IMG/VR virus record: IMGVR_UViG_3300033412_000008
DNA length: 64,000 nucleotides
From: a virus
Strand: one strand, 5' to 3'
Under the pieces are notes generated by a model. It saw only the letters and a list, made by a program, of their open reading frames with translations. It did no database searches and had not been told where the DNA came from. Below are positions 10,425-61,831 of this stretch, piece by piece (the first letter of the stretch is position 1; the number at the start of each line of letters is the position of its first letter). The position numbers and the translations under genes are program-made.

Positions 10425-11401
10425 GGCTCGCTGACGAAGCACAGATCATGCGCTGCCTGTTCGATGGCCGCCGGGACATTTTTGGTGTGGGCAAGGGCAC
10501 CATTGAGCGCTCGTCCACTGGCGCATTCTCCGAGGAGCGCTGGGATGGGCTGTTTGAGGCGCATCTACGCGGCGACCAGAATGCCGATCTCGGCATTTAT
10601 CTTGTTCGCGACGATGATACCGTCACCTACGCTCTGGTTGATATTGATGAGCCGAACTTTGACCTCGCCAAAGAGGTCGCCGACACGCTGCCGACTGACT
10701 ATGCGTGGGTTGAGCGTAGCCGGAGCGGTAACTACCATGTGCTCATTTTCTTCGATGAACCCCTGGAGGCATACTATGCCCGTGCCGTACTGCGCGGAGT
10801 TATTGTCGCTGTTGGACAACCAGCACTGGAGATTTTTCCTAAGCAGGATGGTCTGCGTGAGGGGATGGTAGGAAACTACGCTAGTATTCCGTGGCATGGC
10901 AACCAGCGGCCGATAGTGTGGGGTAAGTCTGGGCTTTGGAAGCATCAAGAGAATCTTGATTATCAAATTCTTCGTAAATTTTGGCTAGCATTCGCAGATG
11001 AACACCGTACGTCCGCCGAGGCTTGGCGGCGCCGTGGGCGGGCGCTGGGCGGCAAGCCGCGCGCTGAGGTCCGCTCAGGCGAGTTCGGCGAGCGCAATAG
11101 CCTTCATGTATGTGCGAGCTACATCTTCGAGCATCGTCACGATAATCCTCTAGTACCGGGCCACCGGGCCACCGTTCTCTTTAACGTTGCTAAGCAGCTA
11201 GCGAATTGCAAACATTACAATGAAAATGAGGCTATTCAGTTCATACAGGCAATTAACGACGCTGGGACCGATCCTATACCAGAGCGTGAAGTTCGTAGGT
11301 TTGTTAGGAACGCATATTCTGGAGGATTTACGAGTACTGGGTGCGACGAGGGCGGCATGAGCGCGTATGTTTCTCCGGACTGCAAGATAGCTAATGGCTA
11401 A
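10421..11401 (+). CDS. Archaeo-eukaryotic primase-type primase-polymerase with PriCT-like tail
   Basis: LVDIDE, ERSRSGNYHV, C-terminal PGHRATVLF. Confidence 0.75.
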   Translation: MRLADEAQIMRCLFDGRRDIFGVGKGTIERSSTGAFSEERWDGLFEAHLRGDQNADLGIYLVRDDDTVTYALVDIDEPNFDLAKEVADTLPTDYAWVERSRSGNYHVLIFFDEPLEAYYARAVLRGVIVAVGQPALEIFPKQDGLREGMVGNYASIPWHGNQRPIVWGKSGLWKHQENLDYQILRKFWLAFADEHRTSAEAWRRRGRALGGKPRAEVRSGEFGERNSLHVCASYIFEHRHDNPLVPGHRATVLFNVAKQLANCKHYNENEAIQFIQAINDAGTDPIPEREVRRFVRNAYSGGFTSTGCDEGGMSAYVSPDCKIANG

Positions 11402-11894
11402 GCACTATAGGGAGTTTCCAGATTGGTTTGAAGAACACATAGTTGCCGCACTATGCTCGCGGAGGTTTAATACTGGGCAAGTCGCTGCTTTGTTTGGTGT
11501 TACGCGCCATACTGTAATCAAAATTCGGCGGCGGTTTCATGTTCCTTTGACGTTGTATCCAAAGTGCCGCATTGTATATCCCTATAGCGATATACACGCG
11601 CCACATGAAGGCTACGTTAGTCGTGTACTACATCCGGCATATTGGCTGTATTCGTATGGTAGTCCTGTAGGACAGCCGAATGTGCGTGTAATGCTTGAGC
11701 ATCGACGCGTCATGGCGGAGTATCTACGTCGGCCGCTACTGTCAACTGAGACAATACATCATTTGAATGGTGATAAGCATGATAATCGCATTGAGAATCT
11801 AGAGTTGCATAGTGGAGAGCACGGTGCTGGACAGCGTTGGGTTTGTGCGAAATGTGGCTGTTCGGATAGGAAGGCAGTGTCTCTAGGTGCCTAA
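11394..11894 (+). CDS. HNH homing endonuclease
   Basis: EHRRVM..IHHLNGDKHDNRIENLEL; low GC. Confidence 0.85.
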   Translation: MAKHYREFPDWFEEHIVAALCSRRFNTGQVAALFGVTRHTVIKIRRRFHVPLTLYPKCRIVYPYSDIHAPHEGYVSRVLHPAYWLYSYGSPVGQPNVRVMLEHRRVMAEYLRRPLLSTETIHHLNGDKHDNRIENLELHSGEHGAGQRWVCAKCGCSDRKAVSLGA

Positions 11895-25171: not shown

Positions 25172-25309
25172 ATGAGTCCCCACGACATCATTCAGAAGGG
25201 GAAGCAGCGCTGGGCTATCATCTGGTGCCCCGAGAGGCGGCCTACGCAGGAGGCCGCTCAGCGGGAGATTAGGCGCCAAAAAAGCCGCGACCAGAGCCGC
25301 CGCCCGTAA
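25172..25309 (+). CDS. Small leaderless hypothetical protein
   Basis: TGC-TACGCT 7 nt before ATG. Confidence 0.45.
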   Translation: MSPHDIIQKGKQRWAIIWCPERRPTQEAAQREIRRQKSRDQSRRP

Positions 25310-27707
25310 CGAAGTCGCCGAGGCCAGTCCAGACCTCCGGGCGGGCCATGATGGCGGCCGGGGAGTCCGCGACCGCAGGCTCGTTGCGCACCAGAATGGC
25401 CTCGCGCAGGCGCGCCTCGTCTGTGGGGTCGTCGCGTTCGATGGTGACAATCTCAACGCCCTGGCCGCCCTCGTGGACGCGCCCCCAATGCGCGAGCATC
25501 TTGGCGGCGACCATGTCGTCGTGCCCGGTGGCCGCCTCGAACTGGTAGCGCCCGTTAGCCGTCAGCGTGAACTCGTAGCTCTCGAACTCCTCGCGCATGT
25601 CGCTGAGGACGCACGCGCGGCCGTGCTCCATGTCGGCGGCCAGGAGGCGGGCCATCTGCTCCTTCGACTGGTTCGTGAATTTGACGGGCGTCACGTCCAC
25701 CCCGGCGGCCGTCAGGTTGTCGTAGACCACGTCGCCGAGGCCCGTGGAGTCGATCATCGCGGTGACGCTCTCGACGCCGGGGGCGTCTTCCAGCTCGGCG
25801 ATGGCGTAGGCGATGCGATTCTGCTGGGTCGGCCAGTCGATCTGGTTGAAGCGCTCGAAGTAGCAGGGCATTCCGTCGTCTTCGCGGTCGGCGGTGATGA
25901 CGGTGAAGTCCTCCTGCTTCGCCAGGTCGATCCCGACGAAGACGTTACCGCGCGGCTCGACAATCTCGTCGATGAGGGCGCCGGGGCGCTCCAGGCCGAG
26001 GCCGAAGATCGAGGCGCCAGCGGCCAGGAATTCGGCCATAATCTCCTGCCGGAAGATGATGGTCGGGAGTTCGTCTTCGGCAGCGTCCGTCTCCTCCTGT
26101 GGGACGAAGGGGTTGGCGGTCTGTGGGAAGCGCCATGACTCGTAGCCGGGCTTGCCTTCCTGACCGAGCTTCCACATTTTCCAGAACCAGTTGTGTCCAC
26201 GCGGCGTGCTGATGATGAACGCCTCACCGCCGGTGTCCATGAGGGTCGGCCGGATGAGCTGCTGCCAGACGTTGTCGGGAATCAGGGCTGCCTCGTCTAC
26301 GACGACGAAGTCCACACCCTCGCCAGCCAGCGAGTCGGGTGAGCCGCCCGAGTAGAACTCGATCATCGTGCCGTTCTTGAGCTGAAGAATCTTCGTGGTG
26401 CTGGTGTACGCCGGGGCAGGCTTCGCCAGCCATGACGGAGGAATCTGGTTGACGACCTCACGGTAGCCACGGGAGACGTTCTTGTAGGTGTTGTGGCTGA
26501 GTAGATATCCAGTTGTTACGTAAAGATGGTCAGTAGCCTCTACTTCTATACAAACCATGTCACATTTATCATTTGTGGGGCGAATATCAATGATTTGCCG
26601 CCGGGAAGCGCGAGGTACGGCGCTCCAGTCTACTGACTTACGAGCACAGTAAAATGGGCAAGTATCCGGCATTGATACCCTTGTACGCCATATACGACCA
26701 TCATGCATAACCGTTGCGCGGCCGCCTAGTGAGCGCGTCAAATCAGCGACGCCACGCGCAAGGCGCTCAGACTTTGATGTAAATTGAACGCCGCCAGATG
26801 CGTTACCGCCGTCAGTATCAAGTAGTCCCGCTAGGACATCGGCGCGATATTTTGCTGGCGCTTGTAGTACAACCATAGGAAGAAACTTAGATTTGGAGCG
26901 TACATCTACTAGACCAACTTCGGAAAGCTGGCGGCGTAGACGTGAAGCATTAGATATCCCGAAATTTATTGGCCCATAACATTTCCATGTGGCACCAGTG
27001 TCTTCTGCTGCATCGCGTACACGAGCAACGATGTCTGCATCTTGATTGGCAAATAGAAGCGTTTGTTTCTCACGAATACAACCATCCCCCAGCATTGCGC
27101 CTAGTAGATAGCCATCAACTTTGGGCGCCTTACCATCAGGAACAGGCGATGCATTATCAATTGAAAACCGACTACGTCCACATGGTTGTCGAAGACCGCG
27201 CTTAAGTATCTCTTTAGTTTTCAATGTACGCGCCGCATTGTGGCCCAACTGCCGCACACGCCAAAGATGATCGTCGGCGCAGCGCACAACTACACCATCC
27301 GACATTTCTACTTCCCATACCTCGCGTTCGGAATGGGCATATACACCCAAAACTTTAGTTGGCTGTCCATCACTACCAATTACAGCGTCGCCAACTTTCA
27401 ATGCTCCCATCGTGCCCCAACCATTCGGCGTGAGAACTGGCTCGTCAAGTGGTTGTGCATTAGCGATCCACCAGATCATTTGGTTCGGCCTGCGCGCCCG
27501 GCGCACAATTTCGTGGGCGGCGACCTTCGTCTTCCCCCAGCGCCGCCCAGCGGCCAGAGTGCGGAAGCGAGCCTCCGAGTTGAGGATGTTTTCCTGGCCG
27601 CCGGAGTGCGGGATCAGAAGGCGGCTGCGGAGTTCGTTGCGGGCGCGCTCTAGCGCCTCTGGGTTGTCGCGGCCTAGTGCTTCGACCCGCTGACGCTCAT
27701 TCGGCAT
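25269..27707 (-). CDS. terL: Terminase large subunit containing an intein
   Basis: AGRRWGKT, VVVDEAA, IISTPRG, GIDLA, HDDMV. Confidence 0.92.
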   Translation of the reverse strand: MPNERQRVEALGRDNPEALERARNELRSRLLIPHSGGQENILNSEARFRTLAAGRRWGKTKVAAHEIVRRARRPNQMIWWIANAQPLDEPVLTPNGWGTMGALKVGDAVIGSDGQPTKVLGVYAHSEREVWEVEMSDGVVVRCADDHLWRVRQLGHNAARTLKTKEILKRGLRQPCGRSRFSIDNASPVPDGKAPKVDGYLLGAMLGDGCIREKQTLLFANQDADIVARVRDAAEDTGATWKCYGPINFGISNASRLRRQLSEVGLVDVRSKSKFLPMVVLQAPAKYRADVLAGLLDTDGGNASGGVQFTSKSERLARGVADLTRSLGGRATVMHDGRIWRTRVSMPDTCPFYCARKSVDWSAVPRASRRQIIDIRPTNDKCDMVCIEVEATDHLYVTTGYLLSHNTYKNVSRGYREVVNQIPPSWLAKPAPAYTSTTKILQLKNGTMIEFYSGGSPDSLAGEGVDFVVVDEAALIPDNVWQQLIRPTLMDTGGEAFIISTPRGHNWFWKMWKLGQEGKPGYESWRFPQTANPFVPQEETDAAEDELPTIIFRQEIMAEFLAAGASIFGLGLERPGALIDEIVEPRGNVFVGIDLAKQEDFTVITADREDDGMPCYFERFNQIDWPTQQNRIAYAIAELEDAPGVESVTAMIDSTGLGDVVYDNLTAAGVDVTPVKFTNQSKEQMARLLAADMEHGRACVLSDMREEFESYEFTLTANGRYQFEAATGHDDMVAAKMLAHWGRVHEGGQGVEIVTIERDDPTDEARLREAILVRNEPAVADSPAAIMARPEVWTGLGDFVTGGGSGRGFFGA
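26490..27458 (-). mobile_element. Class 3-type intein with LAGLIDADG endonuclease (323 aa)
   Basis: Starts AQPLDEPVLTP, block B DDHLW, block F MVCIEV, ends SHN/T; LGAMLGDG and LAGLLDTDG motifs; low GC. Confidence 0.88.
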
Positions 27708-49085: not shown

Positions 49086-49160
49086 ATCCGGGGGCAGGGT
49101 TCGAACCTGCACTTCGAGGTTCAGGGCCTCGCTGGCTGCCAATTACCTTATCACCCCGGA
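49086..49160 (-). tRNA. tRNA-Gln(CTG), atypical
   Basis: TCCGGGG/CCCCGGA acceptor, CGAGG-CCCTGAA-CCTCG, GCAGG-TTCGAAC-CCTGC; C33 and extra nt before the D-stem. Confidence 0.7.
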
Positions 49161-50252: not shown

Positions 50253-50615
50253 TCAGCTTCCACTAGCCAAGCGAATTACGAGGTTAATGATAACAGCGAG
50301 GAAAACTGATCCAATAATAGATGCACCAGCAATCTTTGCCTGTGCGGTACGAATCACAGAAACATCTTCACGCATCCGCTGAACTTCGTCCTTAGTCGCA
50401 TACGTACTCTCCTTCTTTTCGCCAGAATGAATCAGGTCATTATGCTTTTGCGCTAGTTCGCCAGTTGCGTTATTAGCGGCCATTGCCTTATCCTCTGCCG
50501 CATTAACACGCTCATCAAGACGCTTCGCAATCTCCGCTACATTACGACGCTCCGCCTCACGCGCGGCCTCAAACTCACGCCATGAGACAGGAATAATATC
50601 GTCACCAGTAGACAT
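50253..50615 (-). CDS. Coiled-coil protein with C-terminal TM helix
   Basis: Hydrophobic C-terminus IAGASIIGSVFLAVIINLVI. Confidence 0.6.
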   Translation of the reverse strand: MSTGDDIIPVSWREFEAAREAERRNVAEIAKRLDERVNAAEDKAMAANNATGELAQKHNDLIHSGEKKESTYATKDEVQRMREDVSVIRTAQAKIAGASIIGSVFLAVIINLVIRLASGS

Positions 50616-53188: not shown

Positions 53189-53262
53189 GGCGACCCGCGG
53201 GGATCGAACCCGCATTTGCCTGGACCACAACCAGGAGCTATTTCCTATTCGGCCAGGGCCGC
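53189..53262 (-). tRNA. tRNA-His(GTG)
   Basis: CCTGG-TTGTGGT-CCAGG, T-arm, C73; -1 base is T. Confidence 0.8.
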
Positions 53263-53263
53263 A

Positions 53264-53334
53264 AGGCGCGAGAGAGGATTGAACTCTCGAAGACCGGGTT
53301 GCAACCGGCCGCCTTACCACTCGGCCATCGCGCC
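53264..53334 (-). tRNA. tRNA-Cys(GCA)
   Basis: GGCGCGA acceptor, TTGCAAC loop, U73. Confidence 0.9.
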
Positions 53335-53336
53335 AG

Positions 53337-53411
53337 TAGCGGGGGCGGGATTTGAACCCGCGTGACCGGCTTATGAGGCCGTGCTGGAACCAAACTCCAG
53401 TCCACCCCGCT
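53337..53411 (-). tRNA. tRNA-Met(CAT)
   Basis: AGCGGGG/CCCCGCT, CTCATAA loop; fMet-like body but lacks the three G-C anticodon-stem pairs. Confidence 0.85.
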
Positions 53412-53824: not shown

Positions 53825-53867
53825 TGTGCGATATCTCACACAACGTAAGGTAATCGCTTGCTAGGGT
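53825..53867 (+). promoter_or_regulatory. CRP-like box plus -10 (class II geometry)
   Basis: TGTGC-N6-TCACA 53825-53840; TGC-TAGGGT 53862-53867. Confidence 0.65.
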
Positions 53868-53907
53868 TGTGGGCGTCGCAACATAAACCACACGAAAGGA
53901 ACGCGAC

Positions 53908-54237
53908 ATGTTCAAGCAAATCCGCACCGCCTACACTGACGAGTCAATCAACGGAACGATCCTGAGACTAGGGACCGTCATCATCATGGTCTGTCTGACC
54001 ATGTGTGCCATCGCTGCCGTGGCTATCGCCATCGAAAGCAGCGAAGTCCCCGACACCACGGCGAAGCACGCGCCTCGCGTCTGCTTCCCCGCGAAGCGAT
54101 GGGGACCGGCACCCAAACGATATGCGCCCTGCGTCAGAGTGACGCATGTCTCCGAGGATGGTTCCTTCTCTTTCGCCGTGAGCGACAAGGGCGGCACCGT
54201 CCGCTACACCAGCGGCGCGGGCGCGCTAGACCGATGA
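53908..54237 (+). CDS. Membrane-anchored/secreted protein
   Basis: N-terminal TM segment; GAAAGGA RBS. Confidence 0.6.
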   Translation: MFKQIRTAYTDESINGTILRLGTVIIMVCLTMCAIAAVAIAIESSEVPDTTAKHAPRVCFPAKRWGPAPKRYAPCVRVTHVSEDGSFSFAVSDKGGTVRYTSGAGALDR

Positions 54238-54452
54238 TCCTCGCAACCCTCGCAACCCTCGCAAACATGTACAAATACGCGGCGCCCAATGTCGTCGCGT
54301 ATTCGCCAGTCACCGAAGAAGTATGCTCAGCCAACCCAGGCAACTACTGGTACATGACTAACTGCGACTGTCTTGAAGACAGCTTCGGCCACGATATGAT
54401 TCTTGCGTGTCGTATCCCCGAATACTTCAAACCATTGGAGGATGCATCATGA
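54234..54452 (+). CDS. Hypothetical protein
   Basis: ATGA coupling. Confidence 0.45.
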   Translation: MILATLATLANMYKYAAPNVVAYSPVTEEVCSANPGNYWYMTNCDCLEDSFGHDMILACRIPEYFKPLEDAS

Positions 54453-54631
54453 GTATCCGAATCAGGAACACCAGGACCGGCCGCACTACGCAGGCGCGAG
54501 ACGGCAAGGATGCGGCGGTTATAGCGAAGATAGAGCTTGACCGGCGAAGCGGAATAGAGACGACGGGGATGTACCCCGCCGCCCCGCCTAGCCTTCGCCG
54601 CCACTGCGCTCAAGTGAAAGCGGCATCATGA
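54449..54631 (+). CDS. Hypothetical protein
   Basis: GGAGG RBS. Confidence 0.45.
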   Translation: MSIRIRNTRTGRTTQARDGKDAAVIAKIELDRRSGIETTGMYPAAPPSLRRHCAQVKAAS

Positions 54632-54700
54632 AGGGGCGACAGCGGAAGCCAAGCTGGGCACGCAGCCACAGCGCGAAGCCTAAGCGAGTCGGCGGCCGTC

Positions 54701-55222
54701 GTGAGAGGGCCAGACTCCGTGAAGCCAAGCGGGCGCGCTATGCATAGGCATGGCACCCCCACGCCCCGATGGGTGCTGGTAGCGTGGGCGGCCCTGGCCG
54801 CCCTGCTGCTCTACCTCCCGCACACCGCAAATGCTGCCGCGCCCCCGCCACCGGAAGGATGGGGCGCGGCAGAGTTCAAGATGGCGCAGGCATATTGGGG
54901 CGTCGAGGTCCCGCCGCTGTGCGAGACAATCGAAGTCGCGTTTGACGTACCCCTATCGCCCGGCACAGCCGGGGAAGCCACGCAGCCGCGCTTCCCCGGC
55001 ACTCACTGCTGGATGCTGATTGCGCGACCGCTGCATGGCGTCTACTACCAATGCCTAACGGTCGTGCATGAGTTCGGGCACTGGATGGGGCTAGGACACT
55101 CCGCCGACACATCTAGTCCAATGGCAGCGGTCCTGAATCCCACAATCTACGTACGCGGCTGCGCCAAACTCTCGCGGGGTTATGTGACGAGAATCACACA
55201 TACCCGACTGCGAATGCGCTAG
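54701..55222 (+). CDS. Secreted matrixin (M10)-like zinc metalloprotease (start may be 54740)
   Basis: Signal peptide; HEFGHWMGLGHS; Met-turn SPM. Confidence 0.8.
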   Translation: MRGPDSVKPSGRAMHRHGTPTPRWVLVAWAALAALLLYLPHTANAAAPPPPEGWGAAEFKMAQAYWGVEVPPLCETIEVAFDVPLSPGTAGEATQPRFPGTHCWMLIARPLHGVYYQCLTVVHEFGHWMGLGHSADTSSPMAAVLNPTIYVRGCAKLSRGYVTRITHTRLRMR

Positions 55223-55225
55223 GAT
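55183..55225 (+). promoter_or_regulatory. CRP-like box plus -10
   Basis: TGTGA-CGAGAA-TCACA 55183-55198; TAGGAT 55220-55225. Confidence 0.7.
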
Positions 55226-55294
55226 GCGGCTGTAGTCAATCAATGAAAGGGAAACGTGAGAACACGCCCTAATAGCGATAGCGAAGGCGAAAGC

Positions 55295-55480
55295 ATGAGC
55301 GCCCGCGCCTACCCCGGCCGCGACAAGGCGCGGATCCTGCGCCGGGCGGCATCCCTACAGCGCCACCACGCGGCGGAGTCAAATCAGCGAGCGCAATGCT
55401 GCCGTAAGCCTGAGCATGTAGAAGTGCCTGACGCTGCGATCTTCACCACGCAATGCCGCAACTGTGGGGCGGTAGTATGA
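55295..55480 (+). CDS. Hypothetical protein
   Basis: Short ORF with C-terminal CRNC. Confidence 0.45.
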   Translation: MSARAYPGRDKARILRRAASLQRHHAAESNQRAQCCRKPEHVEVPDAAIFTTQCRNCGAVV

Positions 55481-55797
55481 GCGTCACAGTGCCAACCTTG
55501 GCCGAAACATCATCCGATTTCATCGGGCCGCTTAACCCGCACGTCGGCCGCCACACGGTGAGGCTCGCCCCCGGAGCGCGGGCATTCGTCACGAGTCATT
55601 CGCCCCTGCGCGTACAGCGGCACACACGCGGCCCGCGTGTCTACCTGGCAGGACGGCGCGTCCACCACGGCCTAGCGTTCGGCCTGGCCGCGTTGCTCGC
55701 GCTGACACGTCGTCATCGACGCCTAGCCCTCGCGCTTGGCGCCTGGGCCGCCACTGACTGGCGTGACATTCCATTCCGCGATAGGGATAATCACTAA
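55477..55797 (+). CDS. Putative membrane protein
   Basis: RRVHHG, hydrophobic C-terminal half. Confidence 0.5.
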   Translation: MSVTVPTLAETSSDFIGPLNPHVGRHTVRLAPGARAFVTSHSPLRVQRHTRGPRVYLAGRRVHHGLAFGLAALLALTRRHRRLALALGAWAATDWRDIPFRDRDNH

Positions 55798-56234
55798 TGC
55801 CCGCGCCCGGTTGGACACCGCCGCCAAGTGCGAATGCGGGCGAAGGCGACTGTATGCGCCGAGCGCTGGCTTGCGTTGTCGGCGTCCATCCCGACGAGAT
55901 TGACTGGATCAGACCACGCAGCGGTGTTCCATTCTGGCCGCTCTATCGCGCGGAGGCTAAGCGGCTCGGATGGTACATGCGCATTCGGAACTTTGAAGCG
56001 ACAGGCGGAATCCGGTGGGGAGACGTAGCAAAGCCATCGGGTCTGTGGATCGGTGTCGTGCGAGGTCGCGGCGGCCGGACTACACACGCCGTGGTGTTCG
56101 ACGGCGACAAATTCCACTTTGGCGAGCAACACCGTCGCCGCCACCCCAACAAGCTATACAAGATCATAGAACTACATGAGCTATCCATGTGTGACAAGAA
56201 TCACATACGAAGCCCTGACCATCTGATAGCGTGA
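55797..56234 (+). CDS. Putative papain-like (C39-like) cysteine peptidase
   Basis: GDCMRRALAC and THAVVFDG. Confidence 0.45.
   Translation: MPAPGWTPPPSANAGEGDCMRRALACVVGVHPDEIDWIRPRSGVPFWPLYRAEAKRLGWYMRIRNFEATGGIRWGDVAKPSGLWIGVVRGRGGRTTHAVVFDGDKFHFGEQHRRRHPNKLYKIIELHELSMCDKNHIRSPDHLIA
56190..56232 (+). promoter_or_regulatory. CRP-like box plus -10
   Basis: TGTGA-CAAGAA-TCACA 56190-56205; TGA-TAGCGT 56227-56232. Confidence 0.7.
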
Positions 56235-56262
56235 GCTATCCCTAGTGAAAGGAAACTAAGAA

Positions 56263-56688
56263 ATGGCTAAGACGAAGGCACGAAACGATGGCTGGGACCA
56301 CACAACGCGCGATCTGCTGGATGGGACCACCATTCGACACGGCGATACCGTGCTGGTTGAGGCTGAGTACACACAGAGCGACCGACCTCCTAACGGAAGG
56401 CTGGACGATCCACCCGGACCGGATGACAAGCTCTGGCTCAATGTACAGGGTCATGCGCCAATCATGGTTCCCCTGTGTGCGGTTCGGGCGCTCCCGACGC
56501 CGCAGACGCGTATGTACACGGTCATCGGCGTTCATGATGGCGGACAAGGAAATCGCTTCGCGGAATCTTACGAAGACATCTGCCCCGGCGGAGCGGAAGA
56601 CAAGGCAACCGCCGAGCACCCGGACCTGCTGATTTCCGGCGTGGTCGAGGGCGAGTGCGAGCTAGTCGATGACGACCCGACAATGTGA
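56263..56688 (+). CDS. Hypothetical protein
   Basis: GAAAGGA RBS. Confidence 0.55.
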   Translation: MAKTKARNDGWDHTTRDLLDGTTIRHGDTVLVEAEYTQSDRPPNGRLDDPPGPDDKLWLNVQGHAPIMVPLCAVRALPTPQTRMYTVIGVHDGGQGNRFAESYEDICPGGAEDKATAEHPDLLISGVVEGECELVDDDPTM

Positions 56689-56726
56689 CCAACGTCACAC
56701 ATAAACCCAAATCAACCTGCTAGTAT
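56684..56726 (+). promoter_or_regulatory. CRP-like box plus -10 upstream of rIIA
   Basis: TGTGA-CCAACG-TCACA 56684-56699; TGC-TAGTAT 56721-56726. Confidence 0.7.
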
Positions 56727-56768
56727 CGAGCTATCCATAGGAAACACAAACGAAAGGACCCCCCCCCT

Positions 56769-58823
56769 ATGATTCCCGAGCGAACCGGAGTTACCGTCGA
56801 TAGCACCGTCCAAGGTGAGGACGTGGCTATGAGCATCGACCAGTCGGCGTTGGCCCACATCATGAACGTCCTCACGGACCTGTATGCCGACTCGGAATTG
56901 GCCGTCATTCGCGAGTACAGCACGAACGCGCTGGACTCCCACATCGAGGCCGGACAGACGCGCCCAATCGAGGTTACGACCCCGACGCCGCTGCGGCCGC
57001 TGCTGACGATCCGAGACTACGGCGTCGGCCTAGACGCTGACGACATTCGAGACATTTACTCCCGCTACGGCGCGAGCACGAAGCGCACGAGCAATGACGC
57101 GGTTGGGATGCTCGGCCTCGGCTGCAAGTCGGCGCTCGCCTACGTTGACCAGTTCACGCTGGCCGGAATCAAGGATGGGCAGAGGATGCTCGTCTCCATC
57201 GCGCGAGACGAGCACGGTGCCGGAACGATGACGGTCCTAGAGGCCGGGCCGACCGACGAACCAGACGGCGTCGAAATCGGTATCCCTACCGATGACGAGT
57301 ACAGTCTGGAACGCAAGGCGCGCGATTTCTTCTCCTACTGGCAGCCGGGACTCGTGCTGCTGAATGGCGAGGAACCCCCGCAGCTATCCGGCTACGCCGT
57401 TGGCGACAACTACCTAGTGGCCGACCGGGACAATTCGTTCGGCGCTTCCGGCCGCCACGATGGCCGCCCGCTGACCATCGTGATGGGGAACGTGTCCTAC
57501 CCGCCACCCGACGATTACGAGCACGAGGCGGTAGACACGCTGCCGAATGACAAGCGGCTTGTCGTCAACGTCCCCATTGGCGCCGTCCACTTCACACCTT
57601 CGCGTGAGGGACTACAGGATTCCGAGCGCACACGCAAAGCAATCGACGCCGCGCTTGCAGATTTCCAGCGCGAAGTCGCGGAAGTCGTGACCGATGCAAT
57701 CACCGGGGCGCCCGACCGCCCGGCTGCCGCGAAGGCGCTGATTGAAGCCCGCGCCGCGTTCGGTAAAAAGAATGTCCCCGACCTACAGTGGAAAGGTGAG
57801 GACATCCCCACGGTGCTGTCTGCCGAAGACTTGGACCCGGTCGTGGTAGAAGATGGCAAACGCGAATACGCGGCGTCACTGTGGGCAGCCAAGAGGGTGC
57901 ATGGCTACTCGCGCTCTACGTCTCACCGTACACCGGCTGGGCAAATCACGCTCGACGTGGCGGGAGAGAACCCCTGGGTTCTCGGCTACCCGAACGCGAA
58001 ATGGTCTGCGACTCAGAGCCGCAAGCTGCACCGCTACCTGGAACACCACGGGATGCACGATGCGCCGGACAAAGCCACGATTTTCATAACGGATTCGGCC
58101 GCCGTGCCTTGCCCTCAGTGGATCGACGGCGCCGTGACTGCGGTCAACTGGCAGGACGTGCGGGACTGGAAAGACCCGCTTAAGGTGAACGAAGGCGGGA
58201 GCGGCGCCGTCAAGTACGCGGGCACCTACCCCGTGATTACGGGCGGCCGATACTGGAATGAGAAATTCGAGGCTGACGAGTTGCCTACGGTAGGGCGCAA
58301 GCTCTACTACGTGATTGGCGAAAAGCGCTCAGAGTTGGCCTACTCAGTGGCGAAGTGTCTGCCAGAGGACGCCTACGTGGTTTGTCTCGTCTACACGCGC
58401 GCCGACAAGTTCAAGCGTCTGTTTCCGCATGCCCGCAACGGCTTGGAGGCAGTACGACGTGGGGCGACCGGATGGTACAAGTCCCTGGGCGCCAAGTCCC
58501 GACTGGCTATCACGCTTGGCCTGGAGCTTCGCTATCGCTACGTCGGGCCGATTGCGCTGCCTGCTGACAAGGTTGATGACCCGGAGCTATCCGCGCTCTG
58601 CCGAGCCTGGCGCCTGTGGGAGTCGGGGACGCTGAAGGAACGCTATCAAGCGCGAGCGGAGTTCATTCAGCGGCCAGATGACGAGGAAATGATTGACTAC
58701 GCGACGGTCTGCCAGCGCTACCCCTTGCTAGACGAGGAGTTGGAGTCTACAATCGAGAGCCATCTTGACCATGCCCTGCTGTATGTCAATGCGGTCTACG
58801 CCGCCAACAAAGGAGGTAAATAA
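56769..58823 (+). CDS. rIIA: rIIA-like protein (N-terminal HSP90/GHKL ATPase)
   Basis: IREYSTNALDSH, IRDYGVGL, YGASTKR..GMLGLGCKS; followed by rIIB-like gene. Confidence 0.8.
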   Translation: MIPERTGVTVDSTVQGEDVAMSIDQSALAHIMNVLTDLYADSELAVIREYSTNALDSHIEAGQTRPIEVTTPTPLRPLLTIRDYGVGLDADDIRDIYSRYGASTKRTSNDAVGMLGLGCKSALAYVDQFTLAGIKDGQRMLVSIARDEHGAGTMTVLEAGPTDEPDGVEIGIPTDDEYSLERKARDFFSYWQPGLVLLNGEEPPQLSGYAVGDNYLVADRDNSFGASGRHDGRPLTIVMGNVSYPPPDDYEHEAVDTLPNDKRLVVNVPIGAVHFTPSREGLQDSERTRKAIDAALADFQREVAEVVTDAITGAPDRPAAAKALIEARAAFGKKNVPDLQWKGEDIPTVLSAEDLDPVVVEDGKREYAASLWAAKRVHGYSRSTSHRTPAGQITLDVAGENPWVLGYPNAKWSATQSRKLHRYLEHHGMHDAPDKATIFITDSAAVPCPQWIDGAVTAVNWQDVRDWKDPLKVNEGGSGAVKYAGTYPVITGGRYWNEKFEADELPTVGRKLYYVIGEKRSELAYSVAKCLPEDAYVVCLVYTRADKFKRLFPHARNGLEAVRRGATGWYKSLGAKSRLAITLGLELRYRYVGPIALPADKVDDPELSALCRAWRLWESGTLKERYQARAEFIQRPDDEEMIDYATVCQRYPLLDEELESTIESHLDHALLYVNAVYAANKGGK

Positions 58824-59836
58824 TGCACCCGTACCACCACGTTAGGACGGAGGACGGCCGCGAGAGCTTGACGGTATTCATGCCGAGCGGTGCGCCCGTC
58901 GTCGCCACCGGGGACCATCCTCACTTCGCCGAGCTTTTGGAGGGCGCACAGTCGGATGCTTCCGCTGACGACCTTCGCAGCCTGGCGGACCTGAGCAACG
59001 CCGTCGCGCAGCACTTCGACACGCTGAGCGAGCGGGTAGCCGTCGCCAATGGCCGCGTTTACTTCGACGGTGACGAGGTCGATTCCACGATTACGCAACA
59101 GATTCGCCGCTGCCTGGACGATCCGGGCGTTGGCGACTGGCGGCCGCTCGTGCGGTTCATGGAAAACGTCGCGGCTAACCCGAATGAGCACTCGCGGGAA
59201 CAGCTTTTCGACTGGCTGCGGGACCGCGAGTTCACAATCACCACGAATGGCTGCTTCATCGCCTACAAGGGCGTCACGTCCGACGGCGAGGACAACTACG
59301 TGTCAAGTAGTCGCGGCCACGGCATCGTCAACGGCGAGCGTTACGAGGGGCAGCTACCCAACCCCGTTGGCGCTGCCGTCGAAATGCCGCGTAGCGACGT
59401 ACAGCACGACCCCGGCGTCGGCTGCCACACTGGCCTGCACGTCGGGACGTATGAGTACGCGCAGGGGTACGCGAGCGCGGCGCTGCTGACCGTTCTCGTT
59501 AATCCTCGCGACGTGGTTAGCGTTCCAACCGATTGCGAGGCAGCCAAGATGCGCGTCTGCCGGTACGTCGTCTCAGACGACGAACCGACGGCGCCGCAGG
59601 AATCGGCCGCCATCGCAGACGAGGGCGAGGTCTACACAGACACGCTCGCCCCGGACGCCGACTATGACGGCTATGACGAATTCGTGGCGACCGGGGAAGT
59701 CCGGTACGCACGGCTGGGCGAGTTCTACACCCTGGGCGAGGGACAGACCTGGGCTGGAAAGGTCTGCCGGGCGATGTACGACCACGACTCAGGGCCGGTA
59801 GATCACATCTTGGTCCCGAGGTACCCGAGGGACTAG
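58823..59836 (+). CDS. rIIB: rIIB-like protein
   Basis: FTITTNGCFIAYKGV, MPRSDV, CHTGLHVG, VNPRDVVSVP.D..KMRVCRY. Confidence 0.8.
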   Translation: MHPYHHVRTEDGRESLTVFMPSGAPVVATGDHPHFAELLEGAQSDASADDLRSLADLSNAVAQHFDTLSERVAVANGRVYFDGDEVDSTITQQIRRCLDDPGVGDWRPLVRFMENVAANPNEHSREQLFDWLRDREFTITTNGCFIAYKGVTSDGEDNYVSSSRGHGIVNGERYEGQLPNPVGAAVEMPRSDVQHDPGVGCHTGLHVGTYEYAQGYASAALLTVLVNPRDVVSVPTDCEAAKMRVCRYVVSDDEPTAPQESAAIADEGEVYTDTLAPDADYDGYDEFVATGEVRYARLGEFYTLGEGQTWAGKVCRAMYDHDSGPVDHILVPRYPRD

Positions 59837-59842
59837 GGGGAC

Positions 59843-59876
59843 GGGGCGCTCTGTGACGGGAATCACAGAGCGCCCC
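59843..59876. promoter_or_regulatory. 14-bp hairpin whose core is a CRP-like box
   Basis: GGGGCGCTCTGTGA-CGGGAA-TCACAGAGCGCCCC. Confidence 0.65.
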
Positions 59877-60043
59877 ACAAATCTGTGATACAAATACTCC
59901 CACTTGACCGGGGCGCGCTCCCACGAAGCGAGCGTACGCAGGCAGCACCCTGCCCCGCGAATAATGAGGTGACTAGTCGGGCCGATCAAGCGACTGACTA
60001 GGGCGAACATAGAGGCCGTAAACCTTTGCCTCATTGTTCCGGT

Positions 60044-61566: not shown

Positions 61567-61636
61567 TGCCTGTCACGGGGGGGGGCAGGGTTCCCTCCCC
61601 TCCCCGTGATACACTAACTACGAAGGGAGCTATCCA

Positions 61637-61831
61637 ATGACAACAAAACTTATTTCATCCCCAGATACCGTAGGGATCGACCCGGAGGAAATCCGTGCAA
61701 ACCCCGGCGCTCTTGTCGAGGTTCACGAGGACGTGCTGCGCGACCTAATGCGCACCCCGCACGCGATTGAACGGCCGCGCCCTATTGAGCATGGCGACCT
61801 TCAGCACCCGCGGCGGAGGATGTGCGTCTGA
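61637..61831 (+). CDS. Hypothetical protein
   Basis: Follows TGA-TACACT -10 at 61610. Confidence 0.45.
   Translation: MTTKLISSPDTVGIDPEEIRANPGALVEVHEDVLRDLMRTPHAIERPRPIEHGDLQHPRRRMCV

Follow-up and report, generated by a model that had tools for sequence, protein, structure and literature searches.

In bacteriophages T4 and Mu, the -35 element of one temporal promoter class is replaced by a box standing at a fixed distance from a -10 element of the host type, namely the MotA box and the Mor/C sites. In bacteria, the palindrome TGTGA-N6-TCACA is the consensus of the CRP/GlxR regulators (PMC4254451, PMC5758884). GlxR is mostly an activator (PMC4254451), and actinobacterial CRP recognizes an E. 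coli-like motif, upstream sites being linked to activation in M. tuberculosis (PMC4117774). Viral genomes may also contain sites for host proteins of this type, as in marine T4-like cyanophages, in whose genomes multiple sites are predicted for NtcA, a CRP/FNR-family regulator of the host (PMC3037559). The present analysis concerns the 64,000 nucleotides (nt) of the IMG/VR virus record IMGVR_UViG_3300033412_000008, hereafter the window, in which four perfect copies and one near-perfect copy of the palindrome TGTGA-N6-TCACA, referred to as boxes, stand at the head of a + strand gene arm. As judged from sequence and its conservation, the box and the -10 element behind it are almost certainly a real, conserved promoter module specific to one phage family. 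No paper linking the TGTGA-N6-TCACA motif to phages was found in the literature.

The boxes of the window, their -10 elements and the RNA candidate behind the last of them are the following, distances such as +37 being counted in nt from the start of the box and ORF standing for open reading frame:

53825-53840, + strand: box 1, TGTGC-GATATC-TCACA, one mismatch, belonging to the first promoter (P1) of the + arm.
53859-53867, + strand: extended -10 of P1, TGCTAGGGT, with the hexamer TAGGGT at 53862 (+37); downstream gene 53908-54237.
55183-55198, + strand: box 2, perfect, TGTGA-CGAGAA-TCACA, overlapping the 3' end of the M10-peptidase-like ORF 54701-55222.
55220-55225, + strand: -10 of P2, TAGGAT, at +37, without TGn; downstream gene 55256/55295-55480.
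56190-56205, + strand: box 3, perfect, TGTGA-CAAGAA-TCACA.
56224-56232, + strand: extended -10 of P3, TGATAGCGT, with the hexamer TAGCGT at 56227, directly followed by GAGCTATCC (56233-56241); downstream gene 56263-56688.
56684-56699, + strand: box 4, perfect, TGTGA-CCAACG-TCACA, which is the family consensus.
56718-56726, + strand: extended -10 of P4, TGCTAGTAT, with the hexamer TAGTAT at 56721, predicted to serve rIIA/rIIB.
59852-59867, + strand: box 5, perfect, at the tip of a perfect 14-bp hairpin (59843-59876) directly after the rIIB stop codon.
59886-59894, + strand: TGATACAAA, in the +37 register of box 5, reading TGA-TACAAA without the final T.
59895-60010, + strand: candidate structured non-coding RNA downstream of P5, with several helices over about 110 nt, very highly conserved.

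The initial annotation had placed perfect boxes at 55183, 56190, 56684 and 59852 and a one-mismatch box at 53825, and all these positions are correct. A scan for motif enrichment, which it had proposed as a check, gives four perfect boxes in the window against 0.08 expected, a number reached in none of 100 shuffles, whereas boxes with up to two mismatches elsewhere in the 64 kb are found at chance level (20 against 17.7 expected). Four of the five boxes have a TAnnnT hexamer exactly 37 nt after their start; against a background of 0.53% of + strand positions, at least four of five at +37 has P = 3.8e-9, which confirms the four -10 elements noticed earlier (53862, 55220, 56227 and 56721). The description of the fifth box, with TG-A-TACAAA at the same offset, was likewise accurate, the final T being absent. 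The -10 is preceded by TGn in three of the four TAnnnT promoters. Counting the -10 as -12 to -7 puts the centre of the box at -41.5 relative to predicted starts near 53874, 55232, 56239 and 56733, so the arithmetic behind the proposed class II geometry was right. Some of these elements are nested in coding sequence: the TAG of the P2 -10 doubles as the stop codon of ORF 54701-55222, and the left half of box 4 contains the stop codon of ORF 56263-56688.

The rIIA protein, with numerous relatives on metagenomic contigs of 63-70 kb, was used to fetch flanking regions from related genomes: L001-L005 (63-86% rIIA identity), L006 (49%) and L007 (41%). Boxes are present in six out of six of L001-L006, with three to eight per roughly 20 kb in each. 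The window and these six relatives together provide 39 boxes with at most one mismatch, and TAnnnT stands exactly at +37 in 29 of them, two more having it at +36 or +38; the corresponding P of about 5e-58 against background assumes independence and is overstated, as orthologous sites share ancestry. The profile of 34 family sites reads tgTGTGAC.AAc.TCACACAc, followed by non-conserved bases and then by tGcTAg.gT, and the consensus can be written tgTGTGAC.AAc.TCACACA-N17-TGnTAgnnT. The two A at its centre are almost invariant (31 and 29 of the 34 sites) and keep a single orientation, the C/A at -33/-32 is more strongly conserved than the mirror positions, and TGn precedes the -10 in 25 sites. 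No -35 is recognizable, the best match to TTGACA at 16-19 nt spacing reaching only two to three of six positions in 33 of the 34 sites. Upstream of rIIA, an orthologous box is found in all seven genomes aligned, and the only fixed elements of this footprint are the box, the extended -10, GAGCTATCC and the Shine-Dalgarno sequence. Box 1 also has orthologues at the arm head with a palindromic GATATC or ATATAT spacer, in L001, where the box is perfect, and in L006.

Two further genomes extend this picture. In the IMG/VR relative G001 (about 70 kb), seven of seven boxes lie inside a single 12.4-kb stretch at the head of the + arm, a reversed control pattern giving none. The divergent small contig L168, with a guanine-cytosine (GC) content of 0.67, carries four perfect boxes in 2.8 kb, three of them in tandem at the arm head, with TAnnnT at +37 in two of the four. 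The architecture of a 20-bp palindrome, 17 nt and an extended -10 is thus kept across at least nine related genomes. The distant relative L007 is devoid of the box, and its promoters show canonical TTGACA -35 hexamers at comparable positions. At 2389-2467 and 1345-1370 of L007, the TTGACA -35 lies in the loop of a GC-rich hairpin, and a TTGACA-N7-TAGGGT arrangement also occurs there.

Because the spacing is exact to the nucleotide across diverged spacers, the factor bound to the box and RNA polymerase probably stand in a stereospecific relation. Moreover, since the -35 is absent while the box-less outgroup L007 has a normal one, the box appears to replace the -35 functionally. The reading that we favour, and to which we give nearly an even chance, is class II activation at the boxes by a CRP/GlxR-family protein of the host. 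Each module would consist of a dimer-type palindrome at about -49 to -34, with the core TGTGA-N6-TCACA extended to tgTGTGAC-NAAN-GTCACAca, of 17 non-conserved bases and of a TAgnnT -10, often TGn-extended, with no -35. In this reading, the box centred at -41.5 would be occupied by a CRP/GlxR-family dimer that the host cell already contains, and this dimer would make up for the lack of a -35 contact and bring in the host RNA polymerase with sigma-A. Transcription of the small ORFs, rIIA/rIIB and the conserved small RNA, with which the + arm begins, would then start as soon as the DNA has entered, no phage protein being required. That these genes are early is suggested by their position.

The core of the box matches the CRP/GlxR consensus at 10 of 10 positions with the N6 spacing, in agreement with the assignment made in the initial annotation and with the published motif (PMC4254451, PMC5758884). 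In addition, the first promoter of the arm already bears a box, which leaves no obvious earlier phage gene from which an activator could come. No CRP-family domain was detected by Pfam among the approximately 95 ORFs of the window, and a six-frame search of G001 for cNMP_binding, HTH_Crp_2, HTH_3, HTH_17 and HTH_31 gave none; the earlier remark that no phage CRP-like gene is visible in the window therefore holds, and it can be extended to this relative. PHROGs, searched with 20 ORFs, gave no match for the small early ones. The only helix-turn-helix (HTH) hits of the window are in an HNH homing endonuclease (11394-11894) and at the N-terminus of a metallophosphoesterase (1142-2401), and at 50253-50615 there is one sub-threshold hit to Phage_Repressor_c, limited to the C-terminal portion of that family (E = 0.0064, 16 bits where the cut-off is 27). 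The lack of any detected phage CRP, Xre, Cro or CI domain, taken together with the box at the first promoter, favours a factor present before infection, of the host CRP/GlxR type. A coupling of infection to the carbon and energy state of the host, as the initial annotation had gone on to suggest, is speculation. Indeed, E. coli CRP needs cyclic AMP for DNA binding and is contrasted in this respect with the M. tuberculosis protein (PMC5758884), which makes such a coupling doubtful for Actinobacteria.

Several points weigh against a host activator. The designation of host CRP as the box-binding protein derives from motif and geometry, and an actinobacterial host is presumed solely on the basis of remote capsid matches, promoters of the TAnnnT kind and the GC content. 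The TG/CA flanks of the palindrome, its oriented central AA and the stronger C/A at -33/-32 are not described for CRP. The full architecture, searched as TGTGAC-N5-TCACA-N18-TGnTAnnnT, is multi-copy in only two IMG/VR contigs, both from this phage family. Other actinophages show no visible use of it, and the Streptomyces phage Jay2Jay has no box. The frequent extended -10 implies that an activator is not strictly required, and the box could equally be an operator. About 40 small ORFs without assigned function may hide a DNA-binding protein. Lastly, wherever this was checked, genomes with boxes also encode a member of the small protein family of 54449-54631.

Some of these points lead directly to the possibility, to be taken seriously although clearly below an even chance, that the box is bound by an unrecognised dimeric DNA-binding protein of the phage itself. 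Such a protein might activate delayed-early or middle promoters by standing in for the -35, in the way of T4 MotA or Mu Mor, or it might be a Cro-like early shut-off or autoregulatory repressor that blocks the access of sigma region 4 and alpha at extended -10 elements. Phage activators bound near -42 are well known, with lambda CI at PRM and Mu Mor/C as examples. A motif restricted to one phage family, with features beyond the CRP core such as the TG/CA flanks and the oriented central AA, fits a phage protein, as do promoters that do not strictly need an activator, although the exact match to the CRP core would then be a coincidence. For a repressor, the strict placement in a single register would be unusual: the register of the box is identical throughout and no box lies over the -10 or +1, where repressor operators often sit, which fits an activator better than a classical repressor. 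Neither HTH, ribbon-helix-helix and Cro/CI domains nor any repressor family was detected in the window or in the relative of about 70 kb.

Two candidates for a phage-encoded binder have nevertheless emerged, both without a match to a known DNA-binding fold or family and both encoded behind box promoters, so that a role as activator would require prior basal expression. The first, a phage-group-restricted protein of 60 amino acids (54449-54631), has the core IRxxNTRTGRxxxAxDGKDAAxxxKIExDRRSG, and a conserved, extremely basic ORF of 39 amino acids adjoins its gene at 54628-54747. A collection of 1.8 billion proteins contains no more than about 22 cluster representatives of its family, and between the window and L006 the protein outdoes rIIA in conservation, with 71% identity by local BLAST and 60-62% over full alignments against 49% for rIIA. 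It is encoded in every box-bearing genome covered, including L168, and was not seen in the box-less L007; this co-occurrence can be explained by shared descent, as a single gain or loss would account for the difference between L007 and the others, and within a single clade it is weak evidence for a binding role. Its AlphaFold model, with a predicted local distance difference test score (pLDDT) of 78, suggests a basic beta-hairpin and a long helix, the pLDDT reaching about 90 over residues 1-30, and Foldseek found no match to this model in the PDB at E <= 0.001. The second candidate, encoded at 55295-55480, is a conserved protein of 61 amino acids with a basic helix and an invariant CC-x4-H...C-x2-C motif resembling a zinc ribbon; its AlphaFold model (pLDDT 63) is too poor for structure search. 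The two small proteins gave scores of at most 0.81 in the ESM Atlas. A small WYL protein was also considered as the binder and rejected, as it is present in the box-less L007 too.

The fifth box stands apart through its structural context, which bears on a quite different explanation, whereby the palindrome would act as an RNA hairpin at the 3' end of the upstream unit, as a terminator, stabiliser or processing site, or would be read directly by RNA polymerase. The hairpin at 59843-59876, with a centroid energy of -30.7 kcal/mol and z = -4.3, is one of several longer GC-rich hairpins that carry a box at their tip right after gene ends, others being found in L004 and L005, where similar extended palindromes surround some of the boxes; the hairpin of L007 with the -35 in its loop is analogous. 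Against this, most boxes have no extended stem and a 6-bp stem alone is weak, the box sequence is invariant, no compensatory covariation being seen in its stem, and the -10 stands at a distance set to the nucleotide, pointing to initiation on DNA. A spacing of 21 nt between half-site and -10 also fits no -35 of the sigma-70 family. As it is the sequence rather than the pairing that is conserved and the -10 distance is fixed, a purely RNA-level role is unlikely, and we give very little weight to this explanation as a whole.

With its hairpin, the box 5 region itself looks like a combined terminator and promoter module. Relatives carry TGATACAGT or TGATACATT where the window has TGATACAAA. The RNA candidate that follows is also found in L001, L002, L004 and L162, with 11 of 44 predicted pairs still pairing after changes on both sides and a variable hairpin behind it, and it has no match in Rfam. 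The earlier proposal that the boxes drive the arm with rIIA and rIIB stands insofar as the + arm is headed by a conserved promoter module, whereas the fifth site precedes a structured RNA and not a protein gene.

Binding by another host regulator, such as the redox-sensing repressor Rex or a non-CRP member of the CRP/FNR family, is the least probable explanation and is hardly credible. The Streptomyces Rex operator, TTGTGAA-N4-TTCACAA, does hold the same 16-bp core, and footprinted Rex sites overlap the -35 region, for example from -42 to -16 or from -50 to -22 (PMC5355995), but Rex typically sits between -35 and -10, downstream of where the boxes stand, and the discriminating T before and A after TGTGA, with their mirrors, occur in none of the 34 sites at each position, no half-site out of 68 reading TGTGAA. 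With these flank bases absent from 68 of 68 half-sites, identity with a Rex operator was rejected. It is speculation that the absence of TGTGAA could reflect an avoidance of Rex. Returning to activation by host CRP/GlxR, the wider scenario would be that a virulent actinophage lineage gave up its -35 elements and its own early regulators and wired every arm-head promoter, those of rIIA/B and of the conserved small RNA included, as a class II promoter to host CRP/GlxR through sites that avoid the Rex operator, the onset of infection thereby depending on, and being tuned by, a master regulator of the host. We hold this scenario tentatively, at somewhat less than even probability.

Downstream of the -10 of P4, the sequence continues with GAGCTATCC (56728-56736), the Shine-Dalgarno sequence GAAAGGA, a run of nine C (56759-56767) and the rIIA start codon. 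The orthologous tract is longer in L003, with 11-13 C, and the length of this homopolymer varies among relatives. The 9-mer GAGCTATCC occurs in seven exact copies in the window, all on the + strand (56178, 56233, 56728, 58584, 61627, 62922 and 2063), and is placed either immediately behind a box-promoter -10, shortly upstream of a box or right in front of a start codon; the copy at 61627, for instance, precedes an ATG at 61637. It is kept in all relatives, including the box-less L007, and we presume that it resembles the start-associated sequences of some mycobacteriophages.

The window covers the greater part of a phage genome of about 69.5 kb; the contig on which its rIIA protein is recorded measures 69,480 bp. 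The GC content of the window is about 0.60, and its DNA occurs in soil metagenomes, as seen from the sequencing runs listed. Its general layout is as follows:

1 to about 25,300, + strand: replication arm, with family A DNA polymerase, primase, SNF2 helicase and deoxynucleoside monophosphate kinase.
About 25,270-52,175, - strand: structural arm, with terminase, tape measure protein, capsid, protease and portal.
53189-53411, - strand: tight cluster of three tRNA genes (His, Cys, Ala) just ahead of the + arm.
53908 onwards, + strand: the + arm resumes, after a divergent switch region behind the - strand tRNA cluster.

The first gene of the resumed arm (53908-54237) encodes a small membrane-like protein, and rIIA (56769-58823, + strand) and rIIB (58823-59836, + strand) are identified by their PHROGs matches to RIIA (1.7e-88) and RIIB (1.4e-53). 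No gene for an integrase, a recombinase, CI/Cro, Xre, a sigma factor or an RNA polymerase was detected among the ORFs of the window, and the relative of about 70 kb likewise gave no sigma factor or RNA polymerase gene. Because integrase, repressor, sigma factor and RNA polymerase genes were not detected, the phage looks virulent and reliant on the host RNA polymerase, and it looks like a member of an uncultured soil siphophage family with genomes of about 69 kb. The best rIIA protein matches in the phage collection are Streptomyces phages, at about 34% identity (tblastn), and the capsid has distant matches only, to Mycobacterium, Arthrobacter and Gordonia phages. At the DNA level, nothing meaningful was found among 50,697 phage records by megablast of the region or by blastn of a single promoter, a back-translation scan of IMG/VR with rIIA gave no match, and the nearest NCBI rIIA used as a host lead had no match to genome contigs.

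A few other features of the window were recorded. The large terminase ORF (25269-27707, - strand, 812 amino acids) has a LAGLIDADG_3 match (residues 288-338) ahead of its Terminase_6N match (436-568), which suggests a putative intein or homing-endonuclease insertion. Two ORFs of the replication arm, 11394-11894 and 6102-6578, with low GC content at third codon positions (0.41 and 0.37, respectively), resemble inserted mobile nucleases, one having HNH_3 and HTH_23 and the other an Endonuclease VII domain. There is also a weak tRNA match at 49089-49157 (- strand), and ARAGORN reports a 'tRNA-Ser(cga)' at 988-1066 (+ strand).

Boxes were also encountered in unrelated IMG/VR contigs of low GC content (0.36-0.57), among them L009, L010, L012, L035-L037 and L069, with six to nine perfect boxes each. 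In the records of this group searched whole (G002-G006), most boxes lie within 5-14 kb, and an HTH_Crp gene was found in none of the five. By tblastx, 24 of 26 such multi-box loci are interlinked, and one portal protein is 46% identical to portals of Streptomyces BE-cluster phages. Eight boxes of this group stand 10 nt upstream of a canonical TTGACA-N17-TATAAT, with their centre at about -53.5. These contigs were not counted as independent support for a host factor, given that 24 of the 26 loci are linked and that only these eight boxes are in a fixed, and different, register.

If binding by host CRP/GlxR is true, the module would be the clearest case of a lytic phage ceding the start of its programme to a global activator of the host. 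Host range would then be expected to depend on crp/glxR, and the success of infection in soil Actinobacteria to be linked to the physiology of the host; actinobacterial genetics would gain a compact, portable set of CRP-dependent promoters. Should the binder be a phage protein, a new small regulator and its operator would be defined by the module. Either way, the architecture is sharply defined and can be tested on short DNA fragments even though phage and host are uncultured.

Among known systems, the closest are the class II CRP promoters, of the E. coli galP1 type, and the CRP/GlxR regulons, with which the phage promoters share the 16-bp core, a centre at -41.5 from the predicted start and a -35 that is overlapped or replaced. 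They differ from these regulons in that the sites are found at essentially every promoter of one arm, in that the flanks are TG/CA and not A/T-rich, and in the fixed orientation of the central AA; the phage sites are known here from their sequence. The MotA and Mor promoters are bound by phage proteins made from earlier promoters, whereas in this family no such gene is recognisable and the first promoter is already boxed. Multi-copy short sites in the early region of actinophages are also represented by the L5 stoperators and the conserved inverted repeats of phiC31. However, these temperate phages encode a repressor and an integrase, neither of which was found in the window or in G001, and the L5 stoperators are asymmetric and lie within transcription units, unlike the boxes with their single promoter register. 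A set of temperate immunity operators was accordingly rejected, no integrase, recombinase, CI, Cro or Xre gene being detected in the window or in G001.

The operator of Streptomyces Rex shares the core and the overlap with the -35, but Rex is a repressor that usually sits nearer to the -10, and the flanks differ (PMC5355995). As for the cyanophages with NtcA sites, the likeness lies in the apparent borrowing of a CRP/FNR-type host activator, in the number of sites, several in each genome, and in the lack of a phage-encoded copy of the regulator, whereas the motif there is GTA-N8-TAC, the host belongs to another phylum, and the sites are scattered over diverse genes instead of being gathered at an arm head with exact spacing (PMC3037559). 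With motifs as different as GTA-N8-TAC and TGTGA-N6-TCACA, membership in the NtcA-type promoters was rejected, and only the concept is shared. Host CRP/FNR-family sites were thus already known in cyanophages (NtcA, PMC3037559), as was the replacement of a -35 by a box in systems with phage-encoded activators. What appears to be new is that the whole predicted early promoter set of an actinophage-like lineage, with no recognisable phage regulator, carries the exact CRP consensus at the exact class II spacing.

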